From NCBI GenBank assembly GCA_964016885.1, contig OZ024751.1, positions 34,968,001 through 35,032,000 of the forward strand: 64,000 nt of DNA. The letters run 5' to 3'. The stretch is from Eledone cirrhosa. Its lineage: Eukaryota. Below are positions 8,362 through 62,475 of this stretch, in pieces. The translations under genes were made by a program, and so were the position numbers. Position 1 is the stretch's first letter, and each line of letters opens with the position of its first letter. A model generated the notes under the pieces. The model ran no database searches. It saw nothing but the letters and a program-made list of their open reading frames with translations, and was not told where the DNA came from.

Positions 8362-9374
8362 CATAAAGACAAATTCACCTCAAATTCACCCGCAATCCAA
8401 AACTTCAGAGTTGGTACCATGAATGTAGGCACCTTCAAGGGTCGCTCTAACGAGGTTGTAGAAATGCTTGAACGTAAGGAGGTCGATGTTTGTTGTATTC
8501 AAGAGACCAGGTGGAGGGGTGGGTCTGCTAGATTCATCGTGGGTAAAGAACGAGGCTATAAGCTTTTCTGGTTGGGAAATGACAATGGGCTGGGTATACA
8601 CATACCACCCCACCACCCCACCGCAAAGTGGTCGCGGAGGCACCACGGCAAAAAAGCACCCAGCCCACACTGTAAAGCTGACGTGGAGGTGCCACGGAAA
8701 AAAAAAAGCACCCAGCACTCACTGCAAACGGGGTTGGCGTCAGGAAGGGCACCCAGCTGTAGAAACCAATCCAGAATCAGCTCCCACCCCACCCTTGCAA
8801 GCATGGAAAAGCGGACGTATGATGAAGTTGATATATATATATATATATATATTAGTATATATATACACATATATATATACACACATATATATCAGTGTAC
8901 ATATATATATACATATATATATATATAAATGAATATTTATTCAATTTAAAGCGCCAATTATCTATATATAACAAGATATGAATTTTTCTAGGGATGGGGG
9001 AAATTTTCAGTTTGTTTTTATATTTTCACTTCATTTTTTACTTTCTATTTAATACAGTCTTTGATCCAATATAATCCTGACAGTATTTGAACCAGTTTAC
9101 CTCATATATATGTATGCACACACAACACTCAAGTTTCGCCATCTACTGCTATTTCATTCATATTTATTGTTTAATTAACTCTGGTCTAATTCATCAACTA
9201 TTGTTAATTATATTATTACGTAGATTTCTTATAAAATCTAGTGCATATATACGTGTATATATATACAGGGAGACACTGTAATAGATGTAAAGAGAGTGGG
9301 AGATAGAGTTATAGAAGTAAAGAGAGGGGGAGAAATAAGCGGTAGATAGAGTAATAGATGTAAAGAGAGGGTTA

Positions 9375-9551
9375 GAACGTTCAACTTGGCAGTCAGTACA
9401 ATGTTCAGCATGGTAGCCAGTACATATGCCAACTACCCAACCGGCCAGCCAGCCGCATATGCGGTTGACTGGCCAGTTGGGCGGTTGCTATGTGGAACGT
9501 TCAACTACGCAGTCAGTACCAAAGTTCAACATTGTAGCCAGTGCATATGCC
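9375..9551. other. Direct repeat - hairpin - direct repeat module, one per monomer
   Basis: 56/57-bp repeats GAACGTTCAACT...CATATGCC at 9375 and 9495 flank a palindrome centred on GCAT|ATGC (9458/9459). Confidence 0.9.
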
Positions 9552-9597
9552 GATCGCCGCGCCCTCTTTGCTCTATTTTAATGACCTGGAACTAAGT

Positions 9598-9710
9598 AAA
9601 AAGAGTAGGAGATAACTCGACAAGAGCGGAGAGGGTGAGATTCGAACCATGTAAAGTCGTTGGCTCCTGAAGTTCGTAAGCGGGGCTGCTACTGACTAAG
9701 CAACGCCGGC
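9598..9710 (-). ncRNA. Candidate tRNA-like Pol III small RNA, copy 1
   Basis: Minus strand: GCCGGCGTTGCTTAGTCAGTAGCAGC (A-box-like), then GGTTCGAATC (B box), then TTTTT. TATAAG lies ~34 nt upstream. No intact cloverleaf. Confidence 0.5.
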
Positions 9711-10469
9711 AGCAAGGCAGATCGCGCATAAAATAACGCTTATATCTACAAAAAAAAAAAAAAAAAAAAAAAATTTCAATGTTGCACTCTTGTTTGTTGT
9801 TCTTTTATTTTACGTAAACATTTCGCTGCTCTAGCCTCTTATTTCCTATTAGATTACACTTAATTCCATTAAACATTCATTCTTAGTCTCGTGGTAAACT
9901 ATTTCATCTATATTTATATCGCTGTTACAGCCTTTTATTTCTACATCTATCACCTATAGCCACTGTTACGCCGGTAGTATAAGTAGCTTTATAACAAGAA
10001 ACGATGATATAACTCCACAAAATGTCTTCTTCAGCAAGACACTTCACTTCATATTGCTCCAGTACACCGAGTTACACATAGACAGATACATACATACATA
10101 CATACATACATACACAGATAGAAATGAGAGGTAGATAGAGTAAAAGATTTAAAGAGAGTGTGAGAAGTACGAGTTAGATAGTGTAAAAGATTTAAAGAGA
10201 GGGTGAGAGTGTGACACACATTTATCTGTCTATCTCTCTCTATTTTAACACCGGTCGTTATAATTAGTTTTATAACACCGCTATATTACCGACATGAAAG
10301 AGGTAAATAATTATTTCTTAAATGTTTAGAACATGTTTCTTATGTATATTCTTAACATAGCTACGACCTTATCTCATTTACTGGTCTCTACTTTTAGGAC
10401 TTTGCTGGTCCCATGTGCCCTCCACCAAGACACACTCGTCCCTGTACTAATTACTACACATACGTATAT

Positions 10470-12667
10470 ATATTTATTTTAAGAAACCTTAATGACAAAT
10501 AATATAAAGTGTTTGTAAAGTGGGGAAGAGTAGTTTTACGGTGGGGTTGTTATATAGATATCGTGTTTGCAGTGGGGTCGTGACTGGCGTATAATAATGA
10601 GTCACTGTTGATGTATATACAAATCATGTTTTGGATATAAGTGAAGTTATTTAAGAGATTTAGTTGTTTTGTATACATTCATAACGGTACGCGATGGGGC
10701 CCACCCACAGCCCCGGCGGACAGAATGGAGAAGGCGTTTCCCCGGAGCACGGCAAGGGACACGCGCTGGAAAAGCCACTCCAACTCGCGGGGCTCACACC
10801 TGCGGCTGTCCAGCTCAGCGCCTATGGTGGTGAGTAAGGAGGTAGCCCTGGGGCCGAGGACACCAGAAGTCTCCACTTCCAGGGGTACGACCGCAAACCT
10901 GTCGGAGAGTGAACGATATGTGAGGAGTTTGGCCCCCTCAGCCTGACGTGCAGCAGAACCTGGGCCAGTCGCAGACTGCACCAGGTTGCGGCTGCAGAAA
11001 GTGTCGGTGCAAGTGGCATCCCAGACGAGGGGTTTGCCACCGCGGAACGGGAAGATGGTCATGCCATCTAGCCTTTTGCCGTCCCCTCGAGCTGGGAAGG
11101 GAAGCCTGCAGCTTCCAAGCCATGCTTAATGACTTCGTTGAGGGCAGCATGGCATGGATTGCGGCTGGCACTGTGGCGACAGGAAAGCGGGTGGAGGCCG
11201 AAAGAGTCCATGGTGGAACGGCAGCGACATTGGTGTGAGGCCGAGCCTCAGGGAAACGCCGATGCGCAAGCTATTGTTGTCTAGCTGCGTGCGAGTGGAG
11301 AAGGAGGGCAGGGCATGGAGCCAGGCCCCACTGTGGGGTTTGGAGGCTGCACGAAAACAAACAAGGCGGTGCTGGTCGAGCTGGCGCGTGAGCCTGTCTG
11401 AGGCCAGGCTGCACTGGATGGCATCCCAAGTGTGTTGGGGGGGACTTGACGTCAACAGGGGGAGAAGGAGGAGGAACGTCTACTGGGCTAAGTCCCAGCC
11501 GGTCCCACGTCTCACAGGCGGCCACGCGTTCTCTGAACACAGAGGGTTCTGTTGTGTTTTGAAGAACCCTGCTGAGGAGGACGTGGTACGAGGTTACCGA
11601 CGAAAGATATGCCGGCAAAGCTAGTGAGATCGGGGACTGGAGGCGAAGGCCGCCATACCTGACAGGTAAAGTTGCATATCTCATCGGCTGCTGCTCGGAT
11701 ACAAGTTTAGGTGCAGCACAGAGTGTATAGAGGAGCTTCGGCATGGCGTAGCAGTTCCTCAGCAGAAAGAGAACTGGGTGGCCATCAATCAAGCCCAGTC
11801 GGCTCGTGAGAGTCTGGACTTGATGGAGGAGCGGATGGCCGGCGGGTGGATCGGTGAGGGCATCCTCTTTGGGGGTCACCTGAACCTGGCGGAGAATGGA
11901 CCGCACGTCCAAGACGGAGACTGCAAAGCTTGCAGCATCGAGGCTGACATTCACCACCTCCGACTTGGCTGAGTTGACCTGGAGGTCGATTCCCGCCAGG
12001 GCAGGAACCACCGATTGAAGGTCATGGCAGACCGCCTGTACGGGCCCACCCAAAGTAGCATCATCCAGATACCAAACGTTGAGAGCGGGCGATGTGGTCA
12101 ATACCAAGGGTGAACAGGAGGGGTCCCAAAGGGTTGCCCTGTTGGATCCCAGTAGCCGAGGGTATGACCGTATCAGCAGCAAGGCGCATGCTCGGGGCTC
12201 CATATGACAGCTAGGCAGAGGGGGCTCGGCTGAGGCAGGCCTCGAGCAGATGATCCCAGCGTAAAGAGTTGAAGGCATTCCTCATGTTAAACTTGACAAT
12301 GAGGTGGCTGGAGTCCCTGGATGCCGGTTCAGAGTGTTACGGACTTGCAGATCACCTTGGCAGCCAGCCTCCGGAAGACATTGCCCACAGCAATGGGGCG
12401 TATGCCAATCTCTTTCTTCCTGAGAGCGGTGAGGCTGGCCGAAAAAAAGTGGCCTCGAGCATAAGAGTCCAGGGCGCCATGGATGAGCCTATTGGTGAGC
12501 GCCACAATTGCACTCAGAAGGCGGCACCCGGCCTCAGCGGAGAGGGGAGATATCAACTCCTTGAGGAGGCCTGGTCAGAGACCATCAACATCTCCGCAGC
12601 TGCTAGCTGGGAAGGAGCTGATGGCGGACATGATGTCTGCATCAGAAGCCACAAGGAGCAAGTGTGG
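10470..12667 (-). mobile_element. 5'-truncated, decayed CRE-clade non-LTR retrotransposon, copy 1
   Basis: RT motifs RPIAVGNVFRRLAAK, DMRNAFNS, GIQQGNPLGPLLF and WYLDD; zinc knuckle CRC..GLHPLSC; RLE region R(L/P)DG..GKPLVWDAT..AE.AK..PLEVETSG..QRVSLAVLRGNA. Frameshifts and stops present. Putative AATAAA near 10475; the 3' boundary is approximate. Confidence 0.9.
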
Positions 12668-12734
12668 ATTACAATACAAAACCTCTGAGAATGATTTCTA
12701 AGATATTTCACCATAATTAATTTTCATCAATATA

Positions 12735-13030
12735 TGTTAATATTATTATTGTTTATTAGGTCAGGTGGATTGGCCAGAACAATTCTACTCTTCTTTTTTA
12801 GATGTCACGATTTTTCATGGCATTCCTGAGATCATTAATCTCCAGCTGGAGATCCAGAGACATCTGATGTATGTAGGTGAACCTCAGTCATCCCACTTGG
12901 GTCTTACTATGTTTAGGTATCCACCACAGGAGCCAGCTCATCAGGTCATCCTACCCTCAGCAGCAATGTCCAGCATCTATTGACTTCCGCTCCCTAGTTA
13001 TTGTGGTAATCTTCGATATCTGGGAATATA
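12735..13030 (-). mobile_element. 3' end of an RTE-like LINE, one per monomer
   Basis: Minus translation GHCC*G*DDLMSWLLWWIPKHSK..TYIHQMSLDLQLEINDLRNAMKNRDI* matches the RTE C-terminal GH..W.P.H..TY...M.DR pattern; (AAT)n tail. Confidence 0.65.
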
Positions 13031-13112
13031 TTTCTTCTGCTTAAGGGAGTAATAAATATATAGTTTAAAAAAAAACATATATATACACACACATATATAT
13101 ATGTTGTCATTT

Positions 13113-13258
13113 ATAAGAGTTCTCTATCAAAAGCCTTCTCTATGTCCAAAGCTAAGTATAGTGGCTTATTTTTCTCTAAGAACCTCTTTTGTAGTTGTCT
13201 CACTAAGAAGAGGGCATCTGTTGCACTTTTCAGCGGCACAAAACCAAACTGCATCTCA
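13113..13258 (-). mobile_element. RTE reverse transcriptase fragment, one per monomer
   Basis: EMQFGFVPLKSATDALFLVRQLQ..NKPLYLALDIEKAFDR is homologous to the RT in ORF 38771-40027. Confidence 0.9.
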
Positions 13259-13300
13259 TACACATACATACATATACATACATATACACATACATACATA

Positions 13301-13479
13301 CATCATCATCATCATCATCATTTCGTTTTAAGTCCGCTTTTTCCCTGCTTGCAAGGGTGGGACGGGAACTGATTCTGGCTTGATTTCTACAGCTGGATGC
13401 CCTTCCTAACACCAACCTCATTTACAGTGAGTGCTGAGTGCTTTTTTGCCGTGGCACCTCCACGACCACTTTGCAGTGG
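13301..13479 (-). mobile_element. RTE 3' UTR fragment with (GAT)n tail
   Basis: Reverse complement of 14515-14728. Copies also start near 6821, 19271, 25195, 31120, 46862 and 52804. Confidence 0.85.
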
Positions 13480-13504
13480 AATGATATGGACCCCAGTCCC
13501 TATC

Positions 13505-13649
13505 ATCTCATTTCTACAGCTGAGTAAACTGGAGCAATGTGAAATAAAGTGTCTTGCTCAAGGAAACAACACATCACCCGGTCTGAGAATTGAACTCACA
13601 ACCTTTCGATTGCCAGGCCAATGCTCGAACCACTAAGCCATGTGCCTCC
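13505..13649 (-). mobile_element. tRNA-derived SINE with CORE-like body, 3'-truncated
   Basis: Minus strand: TGGCTTAGTGG (A box), GAGTTCAATTC (B box), then TCCTTGAGCAAGACACTTTATTTCACATTGCTCCAGT. Also at 7010-7150 and in later monomers; a plus-strand body fragment lies at ~10025-10070. Confidence 0.8.
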
Positions 13650-14176
13650 ATATACATATACATATACATACACATACATATACATACATATATATATACA
13701 TACATACATATATACACATACATACATACACACACATACATACACATATACATACATATATATACATACATACACATACATACATATATATATATATACA
13801 TAATATAAATATACATACATACACATACATAAGCATATACACATAATTATATATATACATATACACACGTATATATACATATACATACATACATATATAC
13901 ATATACATACATATATACACATACATACATATATACATACATACACACATATACATACATATATACATATACACATACATACATATACATACATATACAC
14001 ATACATACATATATATATATATACATACACACACATATATACATACACACACATATATACAAACACATACATATACACATATATACACATACATACACAT
14101 ACATATACACATATACACTCATATATACATATACATACATACACACACATACATACATATATACATATACATACAT

Positions 14177-14725
14177 AAAGACAAATCCACCTCATGGACG
14201 AGAATGCAAGGGCTCCTCCTCTTTGTTTCGGCCGCGGATGGCTAACCCTAACCCCATCCCCGCTCCCCACCGCTCCCAACCTCCAAACGCAATCCAAAAC
14301 TTCAGAGTTGGTACCATTAATGTAGGCACCTTATAGGGTGGCTCTAACGAGGTTGTAGAAATGCTTGAACGTAAGGAGGTCGATGTTTGTTGTATTCAAG
14401 AGACCAGGTGGAGGGGTGGGTCTGCTAGATTCATCGTGGGTAAAGAACGATGCTATAAGCTTTTCTGTGTGGCAAATGACAATGGGCTGGGTATACACAT
14501 ACCACCCCACCACCCCACCGCAAAGTGGTCGTGGAGGCGCCGCGGCAAAAAAGCACCCAGCCCACACTGTAAAGCTGACGTGGAGGTGCCACGGAAAAAA
14601 AAAAGCACCCAGCACTCACTGCAAACGGGGTTGGCGTCAGGAAGGGCACCCAGCTGTAGAAACCAATCCAGAATCAGCTCCCACCCCACCCTTGCAAGCA
14701 TGGAGAAGCGGACGTATGATGAAGT

Positions 14726-15520: not shown

Positions 15521-15633
15521 AAAAAGAGTAGGAGATAACTCGACAAGAGCGGAGAGGGTGAGATTCGAACCATGTAAAGTCGTTGGCTCCTGAAGTTCGT
15601 AAGCGGGGCTGCTACTGACTGAGCAGCGCCGGC
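15521..15633 (-). ncRNA. Candidate tRNA-like Pol III small RNA, copy 2
   Basis: As copy 1; 5' end GCCGGCGCTGCTCAGTCAGTAGCAGC. Confidence 0.5.
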
Positions 15634-21444: not shown

Positions 21445-21557
21445 AAAAAGAGTAGGAGATAACTCGACAAGAGCGGAGAGGGTGAGATTCGAACCATGTA
21501 AAGTCGTTGGCTCCTGAAGTTCGTAAGCGGGGCTGCTACTGACTGAGCAGCGCCGGC
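21445..21557 (-). ncRNA. Candidate tRNA-like Pol III small RNA, copy 3
   Basis: Same as copy 2. Confidence 0.5.
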
Positions 21558-24553: not shown

Positions 24554-27368
24554 ATTACAATACAAAACCTCTGAGAATGATTTCTAAGATATTTCACCAT
24601 AATTAATTTTCATCAATATATATTAATATTATTATTGTTTATTAGGTCAGGTGGATTGGCCAGAACAATTCTACTCTTCTTTTTTAGATGTCACGATTTT
24701 TCATGGCATTCCTGAGATCATTAATCTCCAGCTGGAGATCCAGAGACATCTGATGTATGTAGGTGAACCTCAGTCATCCCACTTGGGTCTTACTATGTTT
24801 AGGTATCCACCACAGGAGCCAGCTCATCAGGTCATCCTACCCTCAGCAGCAATGTCCAGCATCTATTGATTTCCGCTCCCTAGTTATTGTGGTAATCTTC
24901 GATATCTGGGAATATATTTCTTCTGCTTAAGGGAGTAATAAATATATAGTTTTAAAAAAAACATATATATACACACACATATATATATGTTGTCATTTAT
25001 AAGAGTTCTCTATCAAAAGCCTTCTCTATGTCCAAAGCTAAGTATAGTGGCTTATTTTTCTCTAAGAACCTCTTTTGTAGTTGTCTCACTAAGAAGAGGG
25101 CATCTGTTGCACTTTTCAGCGGCACAAAACCAAACTGCATCTCATACACATACATACATATACATACATACATACATATACACATACATACATACATCAT
25201 CATCATCATCATCATCATCATTTCGTTTTAAGTCCGCTTTTTCCCTGCTTGCAAGGGTGGGACGGGAACTGATTCTGGCTTGATTTCTACAGCTGGATGC
25301 CCTTCCTAACACCAACCTCATTTACAGTGAGTGCTGAGTGCTTTTTTGCCGTGGCACCTCCACGACCACTTTGCAGTGGAATGATATGGACCCCAGTCCC
25401 TATCATCTCATTTCTACAGCTGAGTAAACTGGAGCAATGTGAAATAAAGTGTCTTGCTCAAGGAAACAACACATCACCCGGTCTGAGAATTGAACTCACA
25501 ACCTTTCGATTGCCAGGCCAATGCTCGAACCACTAAGCCATGTACCTACATATACATATACATACACATACATATACATACATATATATATACATACATA
25601 CATATATACACATACATACATACACATACATACACATATACATACATATATATACATACATACACATACATAGATATATATATATACATAATATAAATAT
25701 ACATACATACACATACATAAGCATATACACATAAGTATATATACATATACACACGTATATATATATATACATACATACATATATACACATACATATATAC
25801 ATACATACACACATATACATACATATATACATATACACATACATACATATACATACATATACACATACATACATATATATATATACATACACACACATAT
25901 ATACATACACACACATATATACAAACACATACATATACACATATATACACATACATACACATACATATACATACATATACACATATACACTCATATATAC
26001 ATATACATACATACACACACATACATACATATATACATATACATACATAAAGACAAATCCACCTCATGGACGAGAATGCAAGGGCTCCTCCTCTTTGTTT
26101 CGGCCGCGGATGGCTAACCCTAACCCCATCCCCGCTCCCCACCGCTCCCAACCTCCAAACGCAATCCAAAACTTCAGAGTTGGTACCATTAATGTAGGCA
26201 CCTTATAGGGTGGCTCTAACGAGGTTGTAGAAATGCTTGAACGTAAGGAGGTCGATGTTTGTTGTATTCAAGAGACCAGGTGGAGGGGTGGGTCTGCTAG
26301 ATTCATCGTGGGTAAAGAACGATGCTATAAGCTTTTCTGTGTGGCAAATGACAATGGGCTGGGTATACACATACCACCCCACCACCCCACCGCAAAGTGG
26401 TCGTGGAGGCGCCGCGGCAAAAAAGCACCCAGCCCACACTGTAAAGCTGACGTGGAGGTGCCACGGAAAAAAAAAAAAGCACCCAGCACTCACTGCAAAC
26501 GGGGTTGGCGTCAGGAAGGGCACCCAGCTGTAGAAACCAATCCAGAATCAGCTCCCACCCCACCCTTGCAAGCATGGAAAAGCGGACGTATGATGAAGTT
26601 GATATATATATATATATATATATATTAGTATATATATACACATATATATATACACACATATATATCAGTGTACATATATATATACATATATATATATATA
26701 AATGAATATTTATTCAATTTAAAGCGCCAATTATCTATATATAACAAGATATGAATTTTTCTAGGGATGGGGGAAATTTTCAGTTTGTTTTTATATTTTC
26801 ACTTCATTTTTTACTTTCTATTTAATACAGTCTTTGATCCAATATAATCCTGACAGTATTTGAACCAGTTTACCTCATATATATGTATGCACACACAACA
26901 CTCAAGTTTCGCCATCTACTGCTATTTCATTCATATTTATTGTTTAATTAACTCTGGTCTAATTCATCAACTATTGTTAATTATATTATTACGTAGATTT
27001 CTTATAAAATCTAGTGCATATATACGTGTATATATACAGGGAGACACTGTAATAGATGTAAAGAGAGTGGGAGATAGAGTTATAGAAGTAAAGAGAGGGG
27101 GAGAAATAAGCGGTAGATAGAGTAATAGATGTAAAGAGAGGGTTAGAACGTTCAACTTGACAGTCAGTACAATGTTCAGCATGGTAGCCAGTACATATGC
27201 CAACTACCCAACCGGCCAGCCAGCCGCATATGCGGTTGACTGGCCAGTTGGGCGGTTGGTATGTGGAACGTTCAACTACGCAGTCAGTACCAAAGTTCAA
27301 CATTGTAGCCAGTGCATATGCCGATCGCCGCGCCCTCTTTGCTCTATTTTAATGACCTGGAACTAAGT

Positions 27369-27481
27369 AAAAAGAGTAGGAGATAACTCGACAAGAGCGG
27401 AGAGGGTGAGATTCGAACCATGTAAAGTCGTTGGCTCCTGAACTTCGTAAGCGGGGCTGCTACTGACTGAGCAGCGCCGGC
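27369..27481 (-). ncRNA. Candidate tRNA-like Pol III small RNA, copy 4
   Basis: As copy 2, with one substitution (GAACTTC to GAAGTTC). Confidence 0.5.
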
Positions 27482-28264
27482 AGCAAGGCAAATCGCGCAT
27501 AAAATAACGCTTATATCGACAAAAAAATAAAAAAATTTCAATGTTGCACTCTTGTTTGTTGTTCTTTTATTTTACGTAAACATTTCGCTGCTCTAGCCTC
27601 TTATTTCCTATTAGATTACACTTAATTCCATTAAACATTCATTCTTAGTCTCGTGGTAAACTATTTCATCTATATTTATATCGCTGTTACAGCCTTTTAT
27701 TTCTACATCTATCACCTATAGCCACTGTTACGCCGGTAGTATAAGTAGCTTTATAACAAGAAACGATGATATAACTCCACAAAATGTCTTCTTGAGCAAG
27801 ACACTTCACTTCATATTGCTCCAGTACACCGAGTTACACATAGACAGATACATACATACATACACAGATAGAAATGAGAGGTAGATAGAGTAAAAGATTT
27901 AAAGAGAGTGTGAGAAGTACGAGTTAGATAGTGTAAAAGATTTAAAGAGAGGGTGAGAGTGTGACACACATTTATCTGTCTATCTCTCTCTATTTTAACA
28001 CCGGTCGTTATAATTAGTTTTATAACACCGCTATATTACCGACATGAAAGAGGTAAATAATTATTTCTTAAATGTTTAGAACATGTTTCTCTTGTCTTCT
28101 TAAATGTATAGAACATGTTTCTTATTTATATTCTTAACATAGCTAGGACCTTATCTCATTTACTGGTCTCTACTTTTAGGACTTTGCTGGTCCCATGTGC
28201 CCTCCATAAAGGCACTCTAGTCCCTTCTCTGAGGCCCCGTACTAATTACTACACATACGTATAT

Positions 28265-30478
28265 ATATTTATTTTAAGAAACCTTAATGACAAATAATAT
28301 AAAGTGTTTGTAAAGTGGGGAAGAGTAGTTTTACGGTGGGGTTGTTATATAGATATCGTTTTTGCAGTGGGGTCGTGACTGGCGTATAATAATGAGTCAC
28401 TGTTGATGTATATACAAATCATGTTTTGGATATAAGTGAAGTTATTTAAGAGATTTAGTTGTTTTGTATACATTCATAACGGTACGCGATGGGACCCGCC
28501 CACAACCCCGGCGGACAGAATGGAGAAGGCGTTTCCCCGGAGCACGGCAAGGGAGACGCGCTGGAAAAGCCACTCCAACTCGCGGGGCTCACACCTGCGG
28601 CTGGCCAGCTCAGCGCCTATGGTGGTGAGTAAGGAGGTAGCCCTGGGGCCGAGGACACCAGAAGTCTCCACTTCCAGGGGTACGACCGCAAACCTGTCGG
28701 AGAGTGAACGATATGTGAGGAGTTTGGCCCCCTCAGCCTGACGTGCAGCAGAACCTGGGCCAGTCGCAGACTGCACCAGGTTGCGGCTGCAGAAAGTGTC
28801 AGTGCAAGTGGCATCCCAGACGAGGGGTTTGCCACCACGGAACGGGAAGATGGTCATGCCATCTAGCCTTTTGCCGTCCCCTCGAGCTGGGAAGGGAAGC
28901 CTGCAGCGTCCAAGCCATGCTTAATGACTTCGTTGAGGGCAGCATGGCGTGGATTGCGGCTGGCACTGTGGCGACAGGAAAGCGGGTGGAGGCCGAAAGA
29001 GTCCATGGTGGAACGGCAGCGACATTGGTGTGAGGCCGAGCCTCAGGGAAACGCCGATGCGCAAGCTATTGTTGTCTAGCTGCGTGCGAGTGGAGAAGGA
29101 GGGCAGGGCATGGAGCCAGGCCCCACTGTGGGGTTTGGAGGCTGCACGAAAACAAACAAGGCGGTGCTGGTCGAGCTGGCGCATGAGCCTGTCTGAGGCC
29201 AGGCTGCACTGGATGGCATCCCAAGTGTGTTGGGGGGGACTTGACGTCAACAGGGGGAGAAGGAGGAGGAACGTCTACTGGGCTAAGTCCCAGCCGGTCC
29301 CACGTCTCACAGGCGGCCACGCGTTCTCTGAACACAGAGGGTTCTGTTGTGTTTTGAAGAACCCTGCTGAGGAGGACGTGGTACGAGGTTACCGACGAAA
29401 GATATGCCGGCAAAGCTAGTGAGATCGGGGACTGGAGGCGAAGGCCGCCATACCTGACAGGTAAAGTTGCATATCTCATCGGCTGCTGCTCGGATACAAG
29501 TTTAGGTGTAGCACAGAGTGTATAGAGGAGCTTCGGCATGGCGTAGCAGTTCCTCAGCAGAAAGAGAACTGGGTGGCCATCAATCAAGCCCAGTCGGCTC
29601 GTGAGAGTCTGGACTTGATGGAGGAGCGGATGGCCGGCGGGTGGATCGGTGAGGGCATCCTCTATGGGGGGGTCACCTGAACCTGGCGGAGAATGGACCG
29701 CACGTCCAAGACGGAGACTGCAAAGCTTGCAGCATCGAGGCTAACATTCACCACCTCCGACTTGGCTGAGTTGACCTGGAGGTCGATTCCCGCCAGGGCA
29801 GGAACCACCGATTGAAGGTCATGGCAGACCGCCTGTACGGGCCCACCCAAAGTAGCATCATCCAGATACCAAACGTTGAGAGGGGCCGTTATACTCCAGG
29901 CGATGTGGTCAATACCAAGGGTGAACAGGAGGGGTCCCAAAGGGTTGCCCTGTTGGATCCCAGTAGCCAAGGGTATGACCGTATCAGCAGCATGGCGCAT
30001 GCTTGGGGCTCCATATGACAGGTAGGCAGAGGGGGCTCGGCTGAGGCAGGCCTCGAGCAGATGATCCCAGCGTAAAGAGTTGAAGGCATTCCTCATGTCA
30101 AACTTGACAATGAGGTGGCTGGAGGCCCTGGATGCCAGTTCCGAGTGTTACGGACTTGCAGATTACCTTGGCAGCCAGCCTCCGGAAGACATTGCCCACA
30201 GCAATGGGGCGTATGCCATCCTCTTTCTTCCTGAGAGCGGTGAGGCTGGCCGAAAAAAAGAGGCCTCGAGCATAAGAGTCCAGGGCGCCATGGATGAGCC
30301 TATTGGTGAGCGCCACAATTGCACTCAGAAGGCGGCGCCCGGCCTCAGCGGAGAGGGGAGATATCAACTCCTTGAGGAGGCCTGGTCAGAGACCATCAAC
30401 ATCTCCGCAGCTGCTAGCTGGGAAGGACCTGATGGCGGACATGATGTCTGCATCAGAAGCCACAAGGAGCAAGTGTGG
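28265..30478 (-). mobile_element. CRE-clade retrotransposon, copy 4
   Basis: ORF pieces 28474-28857, 29662-30096 and 30098-30367. Confidence 0.9.
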
Positions 30479-32526
30479 ATTACAATACAAAACCTCTGAG
30501 AATGATTTCTAAGATATTTCACCATAATTAATTTTCATCAATATATATTAATATTATTATTGTTTATTAGGTCAGGTGGATTGGCCAGAACAATTCTACT
30601 CTTCTTTTTTAGATGTCACGATTTTTCATGGCATTCCTGAGATCATTAATCTCCAGCTGGAGATCCAGTGACATCTGATGTATGTAGGTGAACCTCAGTC
30701 ATCCCACTTGGGTCTTACTATGTTTAGGTATCCACCACAGGAGCCAGCTCATCAGGTCATCCTACCCTCAGCAGCACTGTCCAGCATCTATTGATTTCCG
30801 CTCCCTAGTTATTGTGGTAATCTTCGATATCTGGGAATATATTTCTTCTGCTTAAGGGAGTAATAAATATATAGTTTTAAAAAAAACATATATATACACA
30901 CACATATATATATGTTGTCATTTATAAGAGTTCTCTATCAAAAGCCTTCTCTATGTCCAAAGCTAAGTATAGTGGCTTATTTTTCTCTAAGAACCTCTTT
31001 TGTAGTTGTCTCACTAAGAAGAGGGCATCTGTTGCACTTTTCAGCGGCACAAAACCAAACTGCATCTCATACACATACATACATATACATACATACATAC
31101 ATATACACATACATACATACATCATCATCATCATCATCATCATCATTTCGTTTTAAGTCCGCTTTTTCCCTGCTTGCAAGGGTGGGACGGGAACTGATTC
31201 TGGCTTGATTTCTACAGCTGGATGCCCTTCCTAACACCAACCTCATTTACAGTGAGTGCTGAGTGCTTTTTTGCCGTGGCACCTCCACGACCACTTTGCA
31301 GTGGAATGATATGGACCCCAGTCCCTATCATCTCATTTCTACAGCTGAGTAAACTGGAGCAATGTGAAATAAAGTGTCTTGCTCAAGGAAACAACACATC
31401 ACCCGGTCTGAGAATTGAACTCACAACCTTTCGATTGCCAGGCCAATGCTCGAACCACTAAGCCATGTACCTACATATACATATACATACACATACATAT
31501 ACATACATATATATATACATACATACATATATACACATACATACATACACATACATACACATATACATACATATATATACATACATACACATACATAGAT
31601 ATATATATATACATAATATAAATATACATACATACACATACATAAGCATATACACATAAGTATATATACATATACACACGTATATATACATATACATACA
31701 TACATATATACACATACATACATATATACATACATACACACATATACATACATATATACATATACACATACATACATATACATACATATACACATACATA
31801 CATATATATATATACATACACACACATATATACATACACACACATATATACAAACACATACATATACACATATATACACATACATACACATACATATACA
31901 TACATATACACATATACACTCATATATACATATACATACATACACACACATACATACATATATACATATACATACATAAAGACAAATCCACCTCATGGAC
32001 GAGAATGCAAGGGCTCCTCCTCTTTGTTTCGGCCGCGGATGGCTAACCCTAACCCCATCCCCGCTCCCCACCGCTCCCAACCTCCAAACGCAATCCAAAA
32101 CTTCAGAGTTGGTACCATTAATGTAGGCACCTTATAGGGTGGCTCTAACGAGGTTGTAGAAATGCTTGAACGTAAGGAGGTCGATGTTTGTTGTATTCAA
32201 GAGACCAGGTGGAGGGGTGGGTCTGCTAGATTCATCGTGGGTAAAGAACGATGCTATACGCTTTTCTGTGTGGCAAATGACAATGGGCTGGGTATACACA
32301 TACCACCCCACCGCCCCACCGCAAAGTGGTCGTGGAGGCGCCGCGGCCAAAAAGCACCCAGCCCACACTGTAAAGCTGACGTGGAGGTGCCACGGAAAAA
32401 AAAAAGCACCCAGCACTCACTGCAAACGGGGTTGGCGTCAGGAAGGGCACCCAGCTGTAGAAACCAATCCAGAATCAGCTCCCACCCCACCCTTGCAAGC
32501 ATGGAAAAGCGGACGTATGATGAAGT

Positions 32527-32581
<55 letters not shown>

Positions 32582-33322
32582 TATATATATACACATATAT
32601 ATATACACACATATATATCAGTGTACATATATATATACATATATATATATATATAAATGAATATTTATTCAATTTAAAGCGCCAATTATCTATATATAAC
32701 AAGATATGAATTTTTCTAGGGATGGGGAAATTTTCAGTTTGTTTTTATATTTTCACTTCATTTTTTACTTTCTATTTAATACAGTCTTTGATCCAATATA
32801 ATCCTGACAGTATTTGAACCAGTTTACCTCATATATATGTATGCACACACAACACTCAAGTTTCGCCATCTACTGCTATTTCATTCATATTTATTGTTTA
32901 ATTAACTCTGGTCTAATTCATCAACTATTGTTAATTATATTATTACGTAGATTTCTTATAAAATCTAGTGCATATATACGTGTATATATACAGGGAGACA
33001 CTGTAATAGATGTAAAGAGAGTGGGAGATAGAGTTATAGAAGTAAAGAGAGGGGGAGAACTAAACGGTAGATAGAGTAATAGATGTAAAGAGAGGGTTAG
33101 AACGTTCAACTTGACAGTCAGTACAATGTTCAGCATGGTAGCCAGTACATATGCCAACTACCCAACCGGCCAGCCAGCCGCATATGCGGTTGACTGGCCA
33201 GTGGGGCGGGTGGTATGTGGAACGTTCAACTACGCAGTCAGTACCAAAGTTCAACATTGTAGCCAGTGCATATGCCGATCGCCGCGCCCTCTTTGCTCTA
33301 TTTTAATGACCTGGAACTAAGT

Positions 33323-33435
33323 AAAAAGAGTAGGAGATAACTCGACAAGAGCGGAGAGGGTGAGATTCGAACCATGTAAAGTCGTTGGCTCCTGAAGTTC
33401 GTAAGCGGGGCTGCTACTGACTGAGCAGCGCCGGC
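33323..33435 (-). ncRNA. Candidate tRNA-like Pol III small RNA, copy 5
   Basis: Same as copy 2. Confidence 0.5.
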
Positions 33436-34221
33436 AGCAAGGCAAATCGCGCATAAAATAACGCTTATATCGACAAAAAAAAAAAAAAAATTTCAATGTT
33501 GCACTCTTGTTTGTTGTTCTTTTATTTTACGTAAACATTTCGCTGCTCTAGCCTCTTATTTCCTATTAGATTACACTTAATTCCATTAAACATTCATTCT
33601 TAGTCTCGTGGTAAACTATTTCATCTATATTTATATCGCTGTTACAGCCTTTTATTTCTACATCTATCACCTATAGCCACTGTTACGCCGGTAGTATAAG
33701 TAGCTTTATAACAAGAAACGATGATATAACTCCACAAAATGTCTTCTTCAGCAAGACACTTCACTTCATATTGCTCCAGTACACCGAGTTACACATAGAC
33801 AGATACATACATACATACACAGATAGAAATGAGAGGTAGATAGAGTAAAAGATTTAAAGAGAGTGTGAGAAGTACGAGTTAGATAGTGTAAAAGATTTAA
33901 AGAGAGGGTGAGAGTGTGACACACATTTATCTGTCTATCTCTCTCTATTTTAACACCGGTCGTTATAATTAGTTTTATAACACCGCTATATTACCGACAT
34001 GAAAGAGGTAAATAATTATTTCTTAAATGTTTAGAACATGTTTCTCTTGTCTTCTTAAATGTATAGAACATGTTTCTTATTTATATTCTTAACATAGCTA
34101 GGACCTTATCTCATTTACTGGTCTCTACTTTTAGGGCTTTGCTGGTCCCATGTGCCCTCCATGAAGACACACTCGCCCCTTCTCTCTCAGTCTCCGTACT
34201 AATTACTACACATACGTATAT

Positions 34222-36408
34222 ATATTTATTTTAAGAAACCTTAATGACAAATAATATAAAGTGTTTGTAAAGTGGGGAAGAGTAGTTTTACGGTGGGGTT
34301 GTTATATAGATATCGTTTTTGCAGTGGGGTCGTGACTGGCGTATAATAATGAGTCACTGTTGATGTATATACAAATCATGTTTTGAATATAAGTGAAGTT
34401 ATTTAAGAGATTTAGTTGTTTTGTATACATTCATAACGGTACGCGATGGGACCCACCCACAGCCCCGGCGGACAGAATGGAGAAGGCGTTTCCCCGGAGC
34501 ACGGCAAGGGAGACGCGCTGGAAAAGCCACTCCAACTCGCGGGGCTCACACCTGCGGCTGGCCAGCTCAGCGCCTATGGTGGTGAGTAAGGAGGTAGCCC
34601 TGGGGCCGAGGACACCAGAAGTCTCCACTTCCAGGGGTACGACCGCAAACCTGTCGGAGAGTGAACGATATGTGAGGAGTTTGGCCCCCTCAGCCTGACG
34701 TGCAGCAGAACCTGGGCCAGTCGCAGACTGCACCAGGTTGCGGCTGCAGAAAGTGTCGGTGCAAGTGGCATCCCAGACGAGGGGTTTGCCACCGCGGAAC
34801 GGGAAGATGGTCATGCCATCTAGCCTTTTGCCGTCCCCTCGAGCTGGGAAGGGAAGCCTGCAGCGTCCAAGCCATGCTTAATGACTTCGTTGAGGGCAGC
34901 ATGGCGTGGATTGCGGGTGGAGGCCGAAAGAGTCCATGGTGGAACGGCAGCGACATTGGTGTGAGGCCGAGCCTCAGGGAAACGCCGATGCGCAAGCTAT
35001 TGTTGTCTAGCTGCGTGCGAGTGGAGAAGGAGGGCAGGGCATGGAGCCAGGCCCCACTGTGGGGTTTGGAGGCTGCACGAAAACAAACAAGGCGGTGCTG
35101 GTCGAGCTGGCACGTGAGCCTGTCTGAGGCCAGGCTGCACTGGATGGCATCCCAAGTGTGTTGGGGGGGACTTGACGTCAACAGGGGGAGAAGGAGGAGG
35201 AACGTCTACTGGGCTAAGTCCCAGCCGGTCCCACGTCTCACAGGCGGCCACGCGTTCTCTGAACACAGAGGGTTCTGTAGTGTTTTGAAGAACCCTGCTG
35301 AAGAGGACGTGGTACGAGGTTACCGACGAAAGATATGCCGGCAAAGCTAGTGAGATCGGGGACTGGAGGCGAAGGCCGCCATACCTGACAGGTAAAGTTG
35401 CATATCTCATCGGCTGCTGCTCGGATACAAGTTTAGGTGTAGCACAGAGTGTATAGAGGAGCTTCGGCATGGCGTAGCAGTTCCTCAGCAGAAAGAGAAC
35501 TGGGTGGCCATCAATCAAGCCCAGTCGGCTCGTGAGAGTCTGGACTTGATGGAGGAGCGGATGGCCGGCGGGTGGATCGGTGAGGGCATCCTCTTTGGGG
35601 GGTCACCTGAACCTGGCGGAGAATGGACCGCACGTCCAAGACGGAGACTGCAAAGCTTGCAGCATCGAGGCTGACATTCACCACCTCCGACTTGGCTGAG
35701 TTGACCTGGAGGTCGATTCCCGCCAGGGCAGGAACCACCGATTGAAGGTCATGGCAGACCGCCTGTACGGGCCCACCCAAAGTAGCATCATCCAGATACC
35801 AAACGTTGAGAGGGGCCGTTATACTCCAGGCGATGTGGTCAATACCAAGGGTGAACAGGAGGGGTCCCAAAGGGTTGCCCTGTTGGATCCCAGTAGCCAA
35901 GGGTATGACCGTATCAGCAGCATGGCGCATGCTTGGGGCTCCATATGACAGGTAGGCAGAGGGGGCTCGGCTGAGGCAGGCCTCGAGCAGATGATCCCAG
36001 CGTAAAGAGTTGAAGGCATTCCTCATGTCAAACTTGACAATGAGGTGGCTGGAGGCCCTGGATGCCGGTTCCGAGTGTTACGGACTTGCAGATTACCTTG
36101 GCAGCCAGCCTCCGGAAGACATTGCCCACAGCAATGGGGCGTATGCCATCCTCTTTCTTCCTGAGAGCGGTGAGGCTGGCCGAAAAAAAGAGGCCTCGAG
36201 CATAAGAGTCCAGGGCGCCATGGATGAGCCTATTGGTGAGCGCCACAATTGCACTCAGAAGGCGGCGCCCGGCCTCAGCGGAGAGGGGAGATATCAACTC
36301 CTTGAGGAGGCCTGGTCAGAGACCATCAACATCTCCGCAGCTGCTAGCTGGGAAGGACCTGATGGCGGACATGATGTCTGCATCAGAAGCCACAAGGAGC
36401 AAGTGTGG
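34222..36408 (-). mobile_element. CRE-clade retrotransposon, copy 5 (26-bp deletion in zinc knuckle)
   Basis: ORF pieces 34431-34814 and 35511-36026; deletion junction TTGCGGGTGG at ~34915. Confidence 0.9.
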
Positions 36409-37329
36409 ATTACAATACAAAACCTCTGAGAATGATTTCTAAGATATTTCACCATAATTAATTTTCATCAATATATATTAATATTATTATTGTTTATTAG
36501 GTCAGGTGGATTGGCCAGAACAATTCTACTCTTCTTTTTTAGATGTCACGATTTTTCATGGCATTCCTGAGATCATTAATCTCCAGCTGGAGATCCAGAG
36601 ACATCTGATGTATGTAGGTGAACCTCAGTCATCCCACTAGGGTCTTACTATGTTTAGGTATCCACCACAGGAGCCAGCTCATCAGGTCATCCTACCCTCA
36701 GCAGCAATGTCCAGCATCTATTGATTTCCGCTCCCTAGTTATTGTGGTAATCTTCGATATCTGGGAATATATTTCTTCTGCTTAAGGGAGTAATAAATAT
36801 ATAGTTTTAAAAAAAACATATATATACACACACATATATATATGTTGTCATTTATAAGAGTTCTCTATCAAAAGCCTTCTCTATGTCCAAAGCTAAGTAT
36901 AGTGGCTTATTTTTCTCTAAGAACCTCTTTTGTAGTTGTCTCACTAAGAAGAGGGCATCTGTTGCACTTTTCAGCGGCTTAATTAATTAATGAGGAATTT
37001 TGAGGTATTTATAACAATTATTAATTATTTCATTACTGAGATATCATTTGAAGGACTTACTAATGTTTTTATTTATTAATTATTTTATTAGTAACTTAAC
37101 ATGTGGTTCTTGTATAAAATTATGTTGGAAGATTTTAGGAAGATGCTATGTAGCCGGTCGCGGTAAAATAGACGCCCAGGCTATGTAGCCGGTAAGAGTG
37201 TCAGACTCCATGTGTTGCGGCCCTTTATGGTCTGAGTTAAGACAATTTAAAATCTTTTCCACCATCAATTGTTAAAAAACAAGTTAAAATCATTTTGTCG
37301 TCCATTTGTAACGTACGTTACACTTTAGT

Positions 37330-38120
37330 TACATACACATATACTATGTTACATACACACATCTACTGTGTTACATACACACACATCAACTGGGTTGTAT
37401 ACACACACATCTACTGCGTTACATACACATCTACTGTGTTACACACACATCTACTGTGTTACATACACACACATCTACTGAGTTACATACACACACATCT
37501 ACTGTGTTACATACACACACATCTTCTGTGTTACATACACACATCTACTATGTTACATACACACATCTACTGTGTTACATACACACACCTGTGTTACATA
37601 CACACACATCTACTGAGTTACATACACACAGATCTACTGTGTTACATACACACACATCTACTGTGTTACACACATCTTCTATGTTACATACACACAATCT
37701 ACTGTGTTACATACACACATCTACTGAGTTACATACACACACATCTACTGAGTTACATACACACACATGTACTGTGTTACATACACACATCTACTGTGTT
37801 ACATACATACACATCTACTGTGTTACATACATACACATCTACTGTTACATACACACATCTACCGTGTTACACACACACATCTACCGTGTTACACACACAC
37901 ATCTACCGTGTTACACACACACATCTACCGTGTTACACACACACATCTACTGAGTTACATACACATATACTGAGTTACATGCAAACACACATCTACTCTG
38001 TTACATATACACATCTACTGTGTTACATACACATCTACTGTGATACACACACACACATCTACTCATACATATTCATAAATAGACACACATTATACAAATA
38101 ATTATTACATACACACACAT
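37330..38120. repeat. Minisatellite, ~20-24-bp unit CATCTACTGTGTTACATACACACA
   Basis: Read directly; second copy at ~58965-59755. Confidence 0.95.
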
Positions 38121-38890
38121 CTCTGTAATAATTCAGGAAGGAAGGGGCTGGTGAAACGCTATAGCAATGTGTGTGTGTTGTGTACCTTTCAGGTTTACCG
38201 GTTTCGTAGCCTATTTGAAGATTTTATTATAATTATGAACCTTATAATTCAATTAATTATGAATAATTTTGAGCTATTTATCACAATTGTTAGTTAATTA
38301 CTAACATAGTAACTTACCATATGGTTGTTATATAGAATTTTGTTGGAAGACTTTAATTTAGATAGGAACCATTTCCATAGTACGAGAACTAATTTTGGCT
38401 GGGTTTCTACCAAAAGGGTTAATGAAGAATTTTGAACAATTTACTAAAATTATTAATTATTTCATTACTAAGATAATGTGTGAATACACAATTATATGTG
38501 TGTATATATATATAAACAGTATATATATATATAGTATATATATATATAAACAGTATATATATATATAGTATATATATATATAAACAGTATATATATAGTA
38601 TACAAAAGATGTAGTGGGATAGTGTGTAGTCTTAAGACAAGTCTGTCCAGATAGCTGCGCTGTAACTTACACTTATTGGGACTGTGTGTTGGCAAGCAGG
38701 CCTGTATTTTGGGATCTAGCTGGTCCATTATGAGGGAGGTCTGGTTAGTTGGCAGCACCATGCCTTACTTGTGGTATATGTATGTATAGAAATAAGTTAT
38801 TGTATATGCATAACTGTCCATCTATATGTATACATGTATGTTTACTTATATCTTTGCATACATATATACATTTTCAGATGTATACACGTA

Positions 38891-40811
38891 ATGGTCACCC
38901 GGATAGTAAACCAAGTCATACAGAATGGGGTTGTTCTGAAGGACTGGCGTAGCAGCATCATCATTAACTGTTACAAGGGTAAAGGAGATGCCCTAGATAG
39001 GAGTAACTATAGAGGCATTAAATTAATCGACCAGGTCATGAAGGTCACGGAAAAAGTAATAGCGCAACTAATCAGAGAGAGAATTGATCTAGATGAAATG
39101 CAGTTCGGGTTTGTGTCAGGTAAAAGTACCACAGACGCTCTTTTCATTGTACGACAACTACAGGAGAAGTACCTAGTTAAAAGTAAACCCCTATACTTAG
39201 CTTTTGTTGACTTGGAGAAAGCCTTCGACAGAGTCCCCCGTTCCATTATCTGGTGGGCTCTTAGAAAACTAGGTGTTGAGGAATGGCTTGTGAGAGCTAT
39301 ACGAGCCATGTATAAAGAAACAGTCAGCAAGGTTAGAATTAACAACGAATATAGTGAAGAGTTTAGCGTAAAAGTTGGTGTTCATCAGGGCTCCGTCCTT
39401 AGCCCCCTACTATTTATTATTGCCCTTCAGGCTATAACAGTGGAGTTCAAGACCGGCTGCCCATGGGAACTCCTATACGCAGATGATCTAACGCTCATAG
39501 CTGAATCAATGGCCGAGCTAGAGAAGAAATTCCAAACATGGAAGCAAGGCCTAGAATCAGAAGGCCTTAAAATTAACCTGGCTAAGACTAAAGTTCTAGT
39601 TTGTAGGAAAGAAAATAAGGCGCCGGTCCCTTCCGGGAAATGGCCATGCTCAGTGTGTAGGAAAGGCGTAGGTAGAAACTCCATTTTATGTCCCAAATGC
39701 AAAGTATGGGTTCATAAAAGATGTAGTGGGATCACAGGTAAGCTAACTAAGAACATAGATTTTACATGTGGCCGGTGCTCTGGTGCAATAAGTAGCAGCA
39801 AGTGCCCACAAAATACTAGCTCTTTCAATTGCGCAGAGGGTTCTATAGAAATAGTGGACAGCTTCCGTTACCTGGGTGACAAAATCAGCAGTGGGGGAGG
39901 GTGCTCTGAAAGTACAGTAGCTAGAGTCAGAACTGGATGGAAAAAGTTCAGAGAGCTTATACCACTATTAGCCGCTAAAGGGTTCTCCCTAAAAATGAAA
40001 GGCAGGTTGTATGATGCCTGCATATGAACAGCAATGTTGCATGGCAGTGAGACCTGGGCATTGTGTGCAGAGGATATACGCAGACTAGAGAGGAACGAAG
40101 CTTGCATGCTTCGCTGGATGTGTAATAGTAATATATGTGAACGGCAAAGCATAAACGAACTAAGGGAAAAATTAGAAATAAGAGGGATCAGATGTTGTGT
40201 ACTCGAGAGAAGACTACGTTGGTATGGTCCACGTGATGCGGATGAAAGACGACAGCTGTATAAAAAAAATGCAGGGCAATAAAGATAGACGGTAGCCACG
40301 GAGTAGGCAGACCCAGAAAAACCTGGGACGACTTGATAAATTCCGACCTCACACACTTACACCTCTCCAAGACAATGTCACTGGACCGAGATCTTTGGCG
40401 GTACTCAGTAATAGAGAAGACCCGCCTTACCTAGATACAAAGTAAAACCTACTACAGTCAGTAGGCACCTCTAACAAAATACACCCCCACCCCATCCACA
40501 CCGCCCCTTTCAATGTAAAGTTATGTTGGTGCCACAACATCCAGGCCGAAACAAATGAGGTCGTGTAGGTGTCACGACAAAAAAAAAAAACACAGTCCAC
40601 GCAGTAATGTGGCCGTGTAGGTAACACGGTAAAAACCTCCCAGTCCCACACTGTAAATGCGGTTGGTGTTAGGAAGGGCATCCAGCTGTAGAAAACCCGC
40701 CAGACAGTCCTATGCGAGCAAGACAACCACTCTTGCCTCAAGTGGGAAAATTCCCGTCCAAACCCATGCAAGCGTGGAATATGGACGTTAAACGATGATG
40801 ATGATGATGAT
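38891..40811 (+). mobile_element. 5'-truncated RTE-clade LINE with RT and PHD-like finger, pseudogenised
   Basis: Motifs NYRGIKL, QFGF, FVDLEKAFDRV, GVHQGSVLSPLLF, YADD, C4HC3 cluster and FRYLG. Premature TGA at 40025-40027 before LHGSETW; frameshifts near 40230 and 40265; GRPRKTW; stop at 40432-40434; 3' UTR with (GAT)n tail. Confidence 0.95.
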
Positions 40812-40834
40812 ATATATATATATATATATATATA

Positions 40835-41958
40835 TTCCTTTGACATTTCTTAGAAAAAAAATGAAAAAGTTTTGTGAGAACCCCAATGTTTATTTATTTT
40901 ATTTTATTTTTAAATAAAATTAATAACATTAATTTTATTTTGAAATTAGGTTTATAAATATTAATTATCAGCAGACCTTTGTAGCAGTCTTGGCGGCTTA
41001 GTGGGAAGTACCAGAGATGGTGAGGTCCTTGTCTGTAGGTTCAATCCTGGTCTGGGAGTTCAATCATTGCTGTAATGTGTCCTGTTAATCTTTTTTTAAA
41101 TTTTCCTCAGAAAAAACTGAAAATCTTTGGTGAGAACCCCAATGTCTATTTATCTAATATAATTTAATTTATTTTATTTTATTTTACTTTAGTTAAATTG
41201 TCAAAACCACTGGTGATCTAAAGTTAGAGGAGACAGATAAAATAGACATATTGTCTCCTCAACCTTTAGATCTTCAGTGTTTTCGACAATTTAACTAAAA
41301 TAAAAAATTAAATTCAATATAATTAAATAAATAGGGGTTCTCTTTTTCAAAGAGATATAGAAAGAAAATTATAAAAGATTAACATGACACCTTACATGTA
41401 ACTCATGGACCAGGATTGAACCTGAGTCCCCAATTCAACCCTCAGACCAGGATTGAACACCCAGAACAGGATCTCACCATCTCTGGTACTTCCCACTAAG
41501 CTACCGAGACTGATACAAAGATGTACTGAAATTTAATATTTATAAACCTACTTTCAAAATAAAATTAAAAATAAAATATATATATATATATATTCCTTTG
41601 ACATTTCTTAGAAAAAAGAACTGAAAAAGTTTTGTGAGAACGCCAATGTCTATTTATTTTATTTTATTTTTAATTAAATTAGTTATATTTTGAAAGTAGG
41701 TTTATAAATATTAATTTTCAATAGACCTTTGTAGCAGTCTTGGTGGCTTAGTGGGAAGTACCAGAGATGGTGAGATCCTTGTCTGTAAGTTCAATTCTTG
41801 CTTGGAGACATGTCTAATGTGTCCTATTAATCTTTTTTTAATTTTCCTTTTACATCTCTTAGAAATAACTGAAAATCTTTGGTGAGAACCCCAATGTCTA
41901 TTATCTAATATAATTAATTTAATTTAATTTAATTTAATTTTTATTTTAGTGAAACCAC
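40835..41958. mobile_element. Foldback element (arm / inverted arm / arm) with tRNA-like A and B boxes
   Basis: Centre GATCTAAAGTTAGAGGAGACA..TGTCTCCTCAACCTTTAGATC (~41215-41271). CTTAGTGGGAAGTACCAGAGATGGTGAG occurs at ~40998 (+), ~41475-41500 (-) and ~41747 (+). Confidence 0.8.
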
Positions 41959-43091: not shown

Positions 43092-43204
43092 AAAAAGAGT
43101 AGGAGATAACTCGACAAGAGCGGAGAGGGTGAGATTCGAACCATGTAAAGTCGTTGGCTCCTGAACTTCGTAAGCGGGGCTGCTACTGACTGAGCAACGC
43201 CGGC
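43092..43204 (-). ncRNA. Candidate tRNA-like Pol III small RNA, copy 6
   Basis: 5' end GCCGGCGTTGCTCAGTCAGTAGCAGC; B box and T5 intact. Confidence 0.5.
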
Positions 43205-48264: not shown

Positions 48265-48335
<71 letters not shown>

Positions 48336-49076: not shown

Positions 49077-49189
49077 AAAAAGAGTAGGAGATAACTCGAC
49101 AAGAGCGGAGAGGGTGAGATTCGAACCATGTAAAGTCGTTGGCTCCTGAACTTCGTAAGCGGGGCTGCTACTGACTGAGCAGCGCCGGC
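49077..49189 (-). ncRNA. Candidate tRNA-like Pol III small RNA, copy 7
   Basis: As copy 4. Confidence 0.5.
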
Positions 49190-54147: not shown

Positions 54148-54202
<55 letters not shown>

Positions 54203-54943: not shown

Positions 54944-55056
54944 AAAAAGAGTAGGAGATAACTCGACAAGAGCGGAGAGGGTGAGATTCGAACCATGTAA
55001 AGTCGTTGGCCCCTGAACTTCGTAAGCGGGGCTGCTACTGACTGAGCAGCGCCGGC
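54944..55056 (-). ncRNA. Candidate tRNA-like Pol III small RNA, copy 8
   Basis: As copy 4, plus CAGGAGC to CAGGGGC. Confidence 0.5.
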
Positions 55057-62452: not shown

Positions 62453-62475
62453 ATATATATATATATATATATATA

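Follow-up and report, generated by a model that had tools for sequence, protein, structure and literature searches.

The 113-nt unit that recurs on the minus strand of the window (the whole 64,000-nt stretch analysed here, C11:34.97-35.03 Mb) is probably a decayed tRNA-type Pol III gene that has been amplified as a passenger by DNA recombination. It belongs to a 148-nt stretch (9598-9745) that is present in eight copies at 96.6-100% identity, with a copy spacing of 5867-5985 bp and a single step of 9769 bp. The unit starts with GCCGGC and contains an A-box-like segment at positions 8-19, a B box at 63-73, and T5 at 109-113. TATAAG is present on the minus strand of 8/8 copies (one base shorter in copy 6) and begins at -34 in copies 1 and 2. 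The A-box-like segment misses 2-3 positions of TRGCNNARYNGG, which is taken here to be the A-box consensus.

The first-pass annotation of this DNA had reported eight copies with TATAAG near -34, GCCGGC, an A-box-like part, a B box, and T5, as well as variants in copies 1 and 6 (C8T) and copy 8 (A46G), and all of these sequence facts are confirmed. C8T is a near 50:50 polymorphism of the array, with 26 C and 24 T among 50 copies. Given a B box, a T5 within 45 nt together with an upstream TATA-like word is found at 2.1% of 20,000 background positions picked at random. On sequence grounds, the layout does look like that of a whole Pol III gene, beyond chance once the B box is given, and the earlier claim of such a layout (weak A box, B box, T-run, and TATA-like box) agrees with this result.

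Table 1. Features of the window, with strand and the evidence for each
Feature	Position	Strand	Basis
Copy 1, 113-nt tRNA-derived unit (putative)	9598..9710	-	tRNA-like part 1-85 (9626-9710), trailer, T5; tRNA alignments
A-box-like D-arm remnant	9692..9703	-	2-3 mismatches to presumed consensus
B box	9638..9648	-	10/11 to presumed consensus; no T-stem around it
T5, possible Pol III terminator	9598..9602	-	0 changes, 5 sites, 20 copies
TATAAG at -34	9739..9744	-	sequence of unit copies
Copy 2 of unit	15521..15633	-	
Copy 3 of unit	21445..21557	-	
Copy 4 of unit	27369..27481	-	
Copy 5 of unit	33323..33435	-	
Copy 6 of unit	43092..43204	-	
Copy 7 of unit	49077..49189	-	
Copy 8 of unit	54944..55056	-	
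First 5.9-kb array monomer, approximate register	8391..14287		repeat spacing
5' flank (~300 nt) common to older dispersed copies	9711..10010	-	comparison with older loci
Upstream site, presumed YY1-like motif in older copies, lost in array copies	9781..9792	-	alignment
Two ~55-nt direct repeats around ~60-nt central inverted repeat, in each monomer	9377..9547		
43-bp minisatellite block remnant; block bounds ancestral unit	9270..9370		
Second minisatellite remnant plus end motif	10100..10225		
Broken non-LTR retrotransposon: RT and C-terminal endonuclease-like part	10512..12680	-	RVT_1 E 4e-10 (copy 2)
LINE endonuclease fragment	8380..8600	+	Exo_endo_phos E 2e-4, below cut-off

A tRNA-derived origin of the unit, with Lys, Ala, and Sec as candidate isotypes, is supported by alignment to tRNAs of the same genome. 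Nine unit copies score z 5.2-6.5 against the Lys(CTT), Sec, and Ala(GGC)-type tRNAs and z <=2.4 against class II Ser and Asn tRNAs, in a partial comparison set of 25 anticodon types called by ARAGORN, several of which are variants of one element. These alignments beat shuffles, which bears out the earlier description of the unit as tRNA-like. The unit shares the GCCC start and the B box of the three best-matching types, and its D-arm fits the Lys and Ala types. Its middle region fits Sec best (z 2.7, 2/150 shuffles), a score that falls short of significance once it is taken as the best of 25, and the Sec score ranges by subfamily from z 2.3 in the array copies to 5.7. In length the unit is like tRNA-Sec, with a tRNA-like part of 86 nt in copies that carry an extra G, and both have a 23-25-nt hairpin trailer ahead of the T-run.

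Unlike tRNAs, the unit lacks an acceptor, anticodon, or T stem and contains many indels. The first-pass statement that it is not a tRNA stands: ARAGORN calls no tRNA in the window and 0 genes in 11 older loci, and array copy 2 has no tRNA or Vault match at E<=10. An older copy likewise has no tRNA match in Rfam; its matches there, like those of the window and of copy 2, are only chance ones to miRNA hairpins and snoRNAs, and no Rfam family reaches its gathering score in the window.

The genome's tRNA-Sec genes and tRNA-bearing repeats have features of their own. Two tRNA-Sec genes on C23 (L113, L114) carry an octamer-like motif, a TATA box at about -30, and a 25-nt hairpin trailer. At L115 and L116 (loci L115-L117), 5'-altered tRNA-Sec copies have their trailer joined to a common downstream tail and are possibly retroposed chimeras. 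A dispersed AT-rich element of ~1.45 kb (L123:1165-2641 and relatives L124-L152, 86-96% identity between compared copies) starts with a 10-bp hairpin, often by TA repeats, and includes an intact cloverleaf with the anticodon GGC (Ala), which is unusual in eukaryotes. It looks like a non-autonomous DNA element carrying a tRNA gene and is presumably DINE-1/Helentron-like. Genes for tRNA-Ser and tRNA-Lys stand in tandem arrays with periods of ~1.7 and ~1.9 kb (C1:441.19-441.23, C4:128.67-128.73, and C4:79.56-79.62 Mb), which makes arrayed Pol III genes a common feature of this genome.

Older dispersed relatives of the unit record how it moved. A low-depth diverged form was first seen in contigs of sequencing runs, and degenerate motifs located 13 older loci in the genome on C18, C28, C8, and C1636; the first motif tried for this diverged family gave 2 unrelated matches, equal to the control. 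A search with a spacer that is absent from the arrays returned 20 matches (control 6), comprising 13 that were already known, 5 new loci that hold the unit, and 2 with little beyond the spacer. Eighteen older loci carry the unit in a ~0.9-kb block bounded by a 43-bp minisatellite, and within this block the copies have in common a 3' spacer and a 5' flank of as much as 300 nt. Three loci (L060, L061, L064) hold an intermediate type, and L217 has two head-to-tail units ~0.9 kb apart, next to an array-type LINE junction. Upstream flanks are common to the copies, and truncated copies are cut by other insertions and not at the unit's own 5' end. Because the copies share their own flanks, the unit spread as DNA and not as a retroposed element.

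No terminal inverted repeats, target-site duplications, or Helitron ends of the 0.9-kb block were recognised by eye. Derivation of T5 and the 3' end from the minisatellite was considered and dropped, as the match was not above shuffles (51-211/500). On C8 near 0.32 Mb, ~560 nt from the L078 copy, a remnant taken to be Penelope-like, with a presumed hammerhead-like core, is joined to a 35-nt piece of the older unit.

Apart from the unit, the 5.9-kb monomer is debris: presumed SINE pieces, microsatellites, LINE endonuclease scrap, and a broken RT-bearing LINE. In array-type copies the direct and inverted repeat at 9377..9547 stands in place of the ancestral 3' spacer, and in Rfam it has only chance miRNA-hairpin matches. 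The broken LINE is presumed from its motif to belong to the CRE clade. Its homologues from Octopus sinensis are at 47-48%, a PDB search with its ORF returned 0 matches, and an empty site lacking it exists elsewhere (joint 16457>18625).

Related RT-bearing LINEs with differing 3' ends lie ~820 nt upstream of the unit in the array and ~150 nt upstream in the C18 type (L068-L075). Targeting of the tRNA-like gene by the LINE was considered on account of these two different insertion points, but the LINE is abundant and the idea is unsupported. A 9.8-kb monomer variant contains a 22/24-bp minisatellite and an inverted segment and gives rise to a ~21.6-kb higher-order repeat (37328-38055 and 58963-59690; 26602-42366 vs 48309-64000). 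At 1031-2911 on the plus strand, a 626-codon open frame with no Pfam match is probably a large exon of a gene that adjoins the array.

The 3.0-Gb assembly contains about 320-345 copies of the unit, based on 323 matches to a 20-mer (control 8) and 345 to a 22-mer (control 2). The exact B-box 15-mer has 316 genome matches (control 0), and the 4 that were checked are unrelated to the unit. Among the matches listed (the first 100 per probe), arrays occur on C6, C8, C9, C10, and C11, and single or paired copies on C1-C5 and C7. In 13/13 stretches retrieved from the surroundings of scattered copies and from the edges of arrays, the unit is accompanied by kilobases of monomer at ~86-99% identity.

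TTAGGG arrays are found at 3/6 contig ends read (C5, C6, C9), 100-270 kb from unit copies. No TTAGGG array was seen at the ends of C8, C10, and C28, and the C10 unit array reaches the contig end. The array in the window is interstitial (C11:34.97-35.11 of 53.9 Mb), in contrast to the frequent subtelomeric position of the family; it may reflect an old fusion, a translocation, or a misjoin. Beside copies on C1, C2, C5, C6, C11, and C18 there is also a 2-3-kb block that is found 1-3.7 kb to the left of the window.

Contigs from sequencing runs X1, X2, and X3 carry the unit together with its flanks, and runs X4, X6, and X8 yield short or low-depth pieces only. Differently labelled runs contain array DNA that is almost identical, mostly together with its flanks or further parts of the monomer. 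No relative conserved in the unit only was found in contigs of these six DNA runs or of X7, and a metagenome scan returned 0 matches.

Substitutions accumulate in the unit as fast as in its flanks, within the power of a test with a tree length of about 1.0. Among 50 array copies it has 0.124 variant alleles per site vs 0.086-0.229 in the flanks. A tree built from 17 copies, old and new, gives the unit 0.57 changes per site vs 0.51 in the flank (P 0.75), and with the oldest subfamily, in 20/22 copies (L060 and L217b, which have no 3' flank, were left out), 0.72 vs 0.62 (P 0.78). The exact B box is gone in 7/22 copies, its change rate of 0.36-0.55 per site is not clearly under flank rates, and L063 and L074 have deletions within the A-box hairpin. 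In the 20-copy test no change falls on the 5 sites of T5, and the 25 sites at positions 97-121 have only 4; all 20 rows of alignment A2 keep the B-box core TTCGAAT unchanged. The compared copies could all be dead offspring of a working master that is lost or unassembled.

Folding gives a similar picture. The folds of array copies do not stand out from those of shuffles (z -1.19 and -0.70), and 8 older copies give several different MFE folds, with L080 at z -2.78 and L078 at -1.91. The first-pass annotation had proposed a CAGGAGC-GCTCTTG pairing and an A-box hairpin as structure, a proposal that is not supported here: neither stem has covariation, and 112-170/500 shuffles score as high. The outer pair of the second stem is broken in 13/20 rows, its common C-G is confined to array copies, and the RNAalifold covariation term is -0.45. 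Variants that keep a G-U pair do not testify to structure when the array copies are nearly identical. An alternative 13-bp hairpin (14-29 with 44-56) is 92% paired across copies; it too has no covariation (341-393/500 shuffles), and two of its pairs are disrupted in the amplified lineage. The probability of 5'-3' pairing is 0.00 in copy 2, 0-0.2 in 5 older copies, and 0.78-0.79 in 2 C18-type copies, which fold as a closed rod. With no excess conservation and no covariation in the two proposed stems, the earlier suggestion that the unit is the functional cargo of the array is not upheld.

The passenger reading would begin with a tRNA-type gene that entered a ~0.9-kb tandem unit together with its 5' flank, TATA-like box, and T-run. 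That tandem unit also contains SINE scrap, a microsatellite, and the 43-bp minisatellite, and L217 is its surviving head-to-tail pair. The gene would then have lost its cloverleaf and scattered by DNA rearrangement, a movement as DNA to which the relics with common flanks at 18 loci attest. One derivative would have gained the LINE and rearranged into the 5.9-kb monomer; the parts of this step are present in the sequence, and their order is conjectural. Unequal crossover and chromosome-end exchange, as known subtelomere behaviour suggests, would have multiplied the monomer, with the unit drifting at the flank rate measured above. Some copies have an intact B box and may for that reason still be read by Pol III, perhaps leakily, but any RNA made from the unit would have no structure under selection. 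Several observations run against the passenger reading, namely the little-changed T5 and positions 97-121, the invariant TTCGAAT core, the 2% layout, the 316 B-box 15-mers, the C18-type closed rod, the L080 fold (z -2.78), and the interstitial position of the window array.

The rodent BC1 RNA gene is a single conserved, expressed gene, a tRNA-derived Pol III unit with an upstream TATA box and a unique 3' hairpin. The unit is like BC1 in being a tRNA-derived Pol III unit with an upstream TATA-like box and unlike it in being multicopy and showing no constraint. By analogy, the repeat comes closest to the tRNA-related tandem repeats of amphibians, which in the available text of PMC10702118 comprise newt PolIII/TAN, Xenopus OAX (satellite I), and Rana/polIII; PolIII/TAN is reported there to be transcribable in vitro. 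Like PolIII/TAN and OAX, as described in that portion of the paper, the present repeat is tandem, has one tRNA-related segment per monomer, and has no matching SINE family. Its monomer is 5.9 kb long (~0.9 kb in the older form) vs the 250-360 nt given in the same text for Rana/polIII and PolIII/TAN. Unlike the amphibian repeats, the Eledone monomer is mostly transposon debris and has a mollusc host.

Squamate SINE-derived satellites, as far as the accessible part of PMC10702118 describes them, are similar in forming tRNA-related tandem arrays with a subtelomeric preference; they differ in having a known parent SINE and monomers of ~150 nt, whereas here no parent SINE was found and the gene flanks were copied. 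The repeat is undescribed in the available text of the literature searched on octopus subtelomeric repeats, octopus SINEs, tRNA-Sec-derived SINEs, and CRE-clade targets, and the portion of PMC10886601 (Helenus/Ajax) obtained contains nothing on cephalopods. As a passenger, the unit would be one more tRNA-related tandem repeat of little importance, with an unusually traceable history from a 0.9-kb ancestor through LINE insertion to a 5.9-kb subtelomeric monomer.

An unlikely alternative to a passenger gene is a functional Pol III small RNA of tRNA descent that resembles BC1 or OAX, possibly came from tRNA-Sec, and had its dose raised by subtelomeric amplification. The full gene layout (2%), the mostly intact B box, the little-changed T5 region, the 86-nt tRNA-like part of the extra-G copies with its tRNA-Sec-like trailer, the middle region that fits Sec best (z 2.7, 2/150), and the 92%-paired 13-bp hairpin would all suit it, but the substitution rate is no lower than in the flanks and the hairpin has no covariation and two broken pairs in the amplified lineage. 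The Sec signal is moreover the best of 25 types and weak in array copies (z 2.3), and the presumed YY1-like upstream motif is lost from the amplified lineage. A more specific form of this idea is considered very improbable: an octopod-specific Pol III RNA born from tRNA-Sec, which would have kept its length, TATA-led promoter, and hairpin trailer, refolded, and reached ~330 copies at chromosome ends as an abundant germline RNA or a TFIIIC-bound boundary. If true, the tRNA-Sec reading would represent a lineage-specific RNA gene amplified by subtelomere dynamics. It is also quite unlikely that the DNA itself matters, with B-box arrays binding TFIIIC for boundary or tethering functions near chromosome ends by analogy with yeast ETC sites, for which the available text of PMC3395662 offers precedent. 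The ~310 intact B boxes in arrays, many of them subtelomeric and paired with a weak A box, are consistent with such a role, yet the B-box rate of 0.36-0.55 is not clearly under flank rates and the identical 15-mer is found at unrelated loci.

The fallback offered by the first-pass annotation, an old SINE head, fits the copies poorly. Lys-derived cephalopod SINEs exist, and the D-arm resembles tRNA-Lys. Reptiles have SINE-derived subtelomeric satellites, according to the portion of PMC10702118 available. It is nonetheless quite doubtful that the unit is the relic head of a now extinct tRNA-derived SINE that entered the ancestral repeat a single time. No copy has its own 5' end in new flanks, truncations come from other insertions, T5 follows directly after the head, and a TATA-like box precedes it. 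The copies number in the hundreds (~330) and not thousands, share 150-300 nt of 5' flank, and have no retroposed body or tail. No parent SINE with body, tail, and target-site duplications was found among the top 40 scored candidates, a screen that a very diverged family could escape.

That the unit is the animal's vault RNA is extremely unlikely. In the available text of PMC7058938, A and B boxes plus paired 5' and 3' ends are common to vault RNAs, with deuterostome and trypanosome examples, and the unit is like Vault RNA RF00006 as presented there in its internal A (2-3 mismatches) and B boxes, upstream TATA, T-run, and length near 100 nt. C18-type copies are also able to close 5' to 3'. Against this, neither array copy 2 nor the older copy L055 has an RF00006 match at E<=10, the B box is not in a terminal stem, and the 5'-3' stem is absent in array copies (P 0.00 vs 0.85-0.98 for Vault-matching genes on C3). 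The genome has its own cluster of better candidates, and the earlier vault-like assignment of the unit is set aside.

The tandem C3 cluster consists of at least 14 Vault matches over the cut-off (34.1-43.3 bits) at C3:221183987-221251257 (L108-L112, L184), obtained by scoring 49 of ~148,000 candidates, with 4 confirmed by cmscan. They are unrelated to the unit (z <=1.5). Two sequence types occur in pairs, and their terminal stems differ on both sides between types. The matches have a panhandle fold, a TATA-like box near -30, a T-run, and a degenerate B box. On these sequence features, the C3 cluster likely represents real mollusc vault RNA genes, as candidates. The available text of the literature searched describes no mollusc vault RNA, and ncRNA tables of genome papers may list the C3 loci. 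The cluster is a more useful result than the unit itself and provides probes for whether protostome vaults carry RNA.
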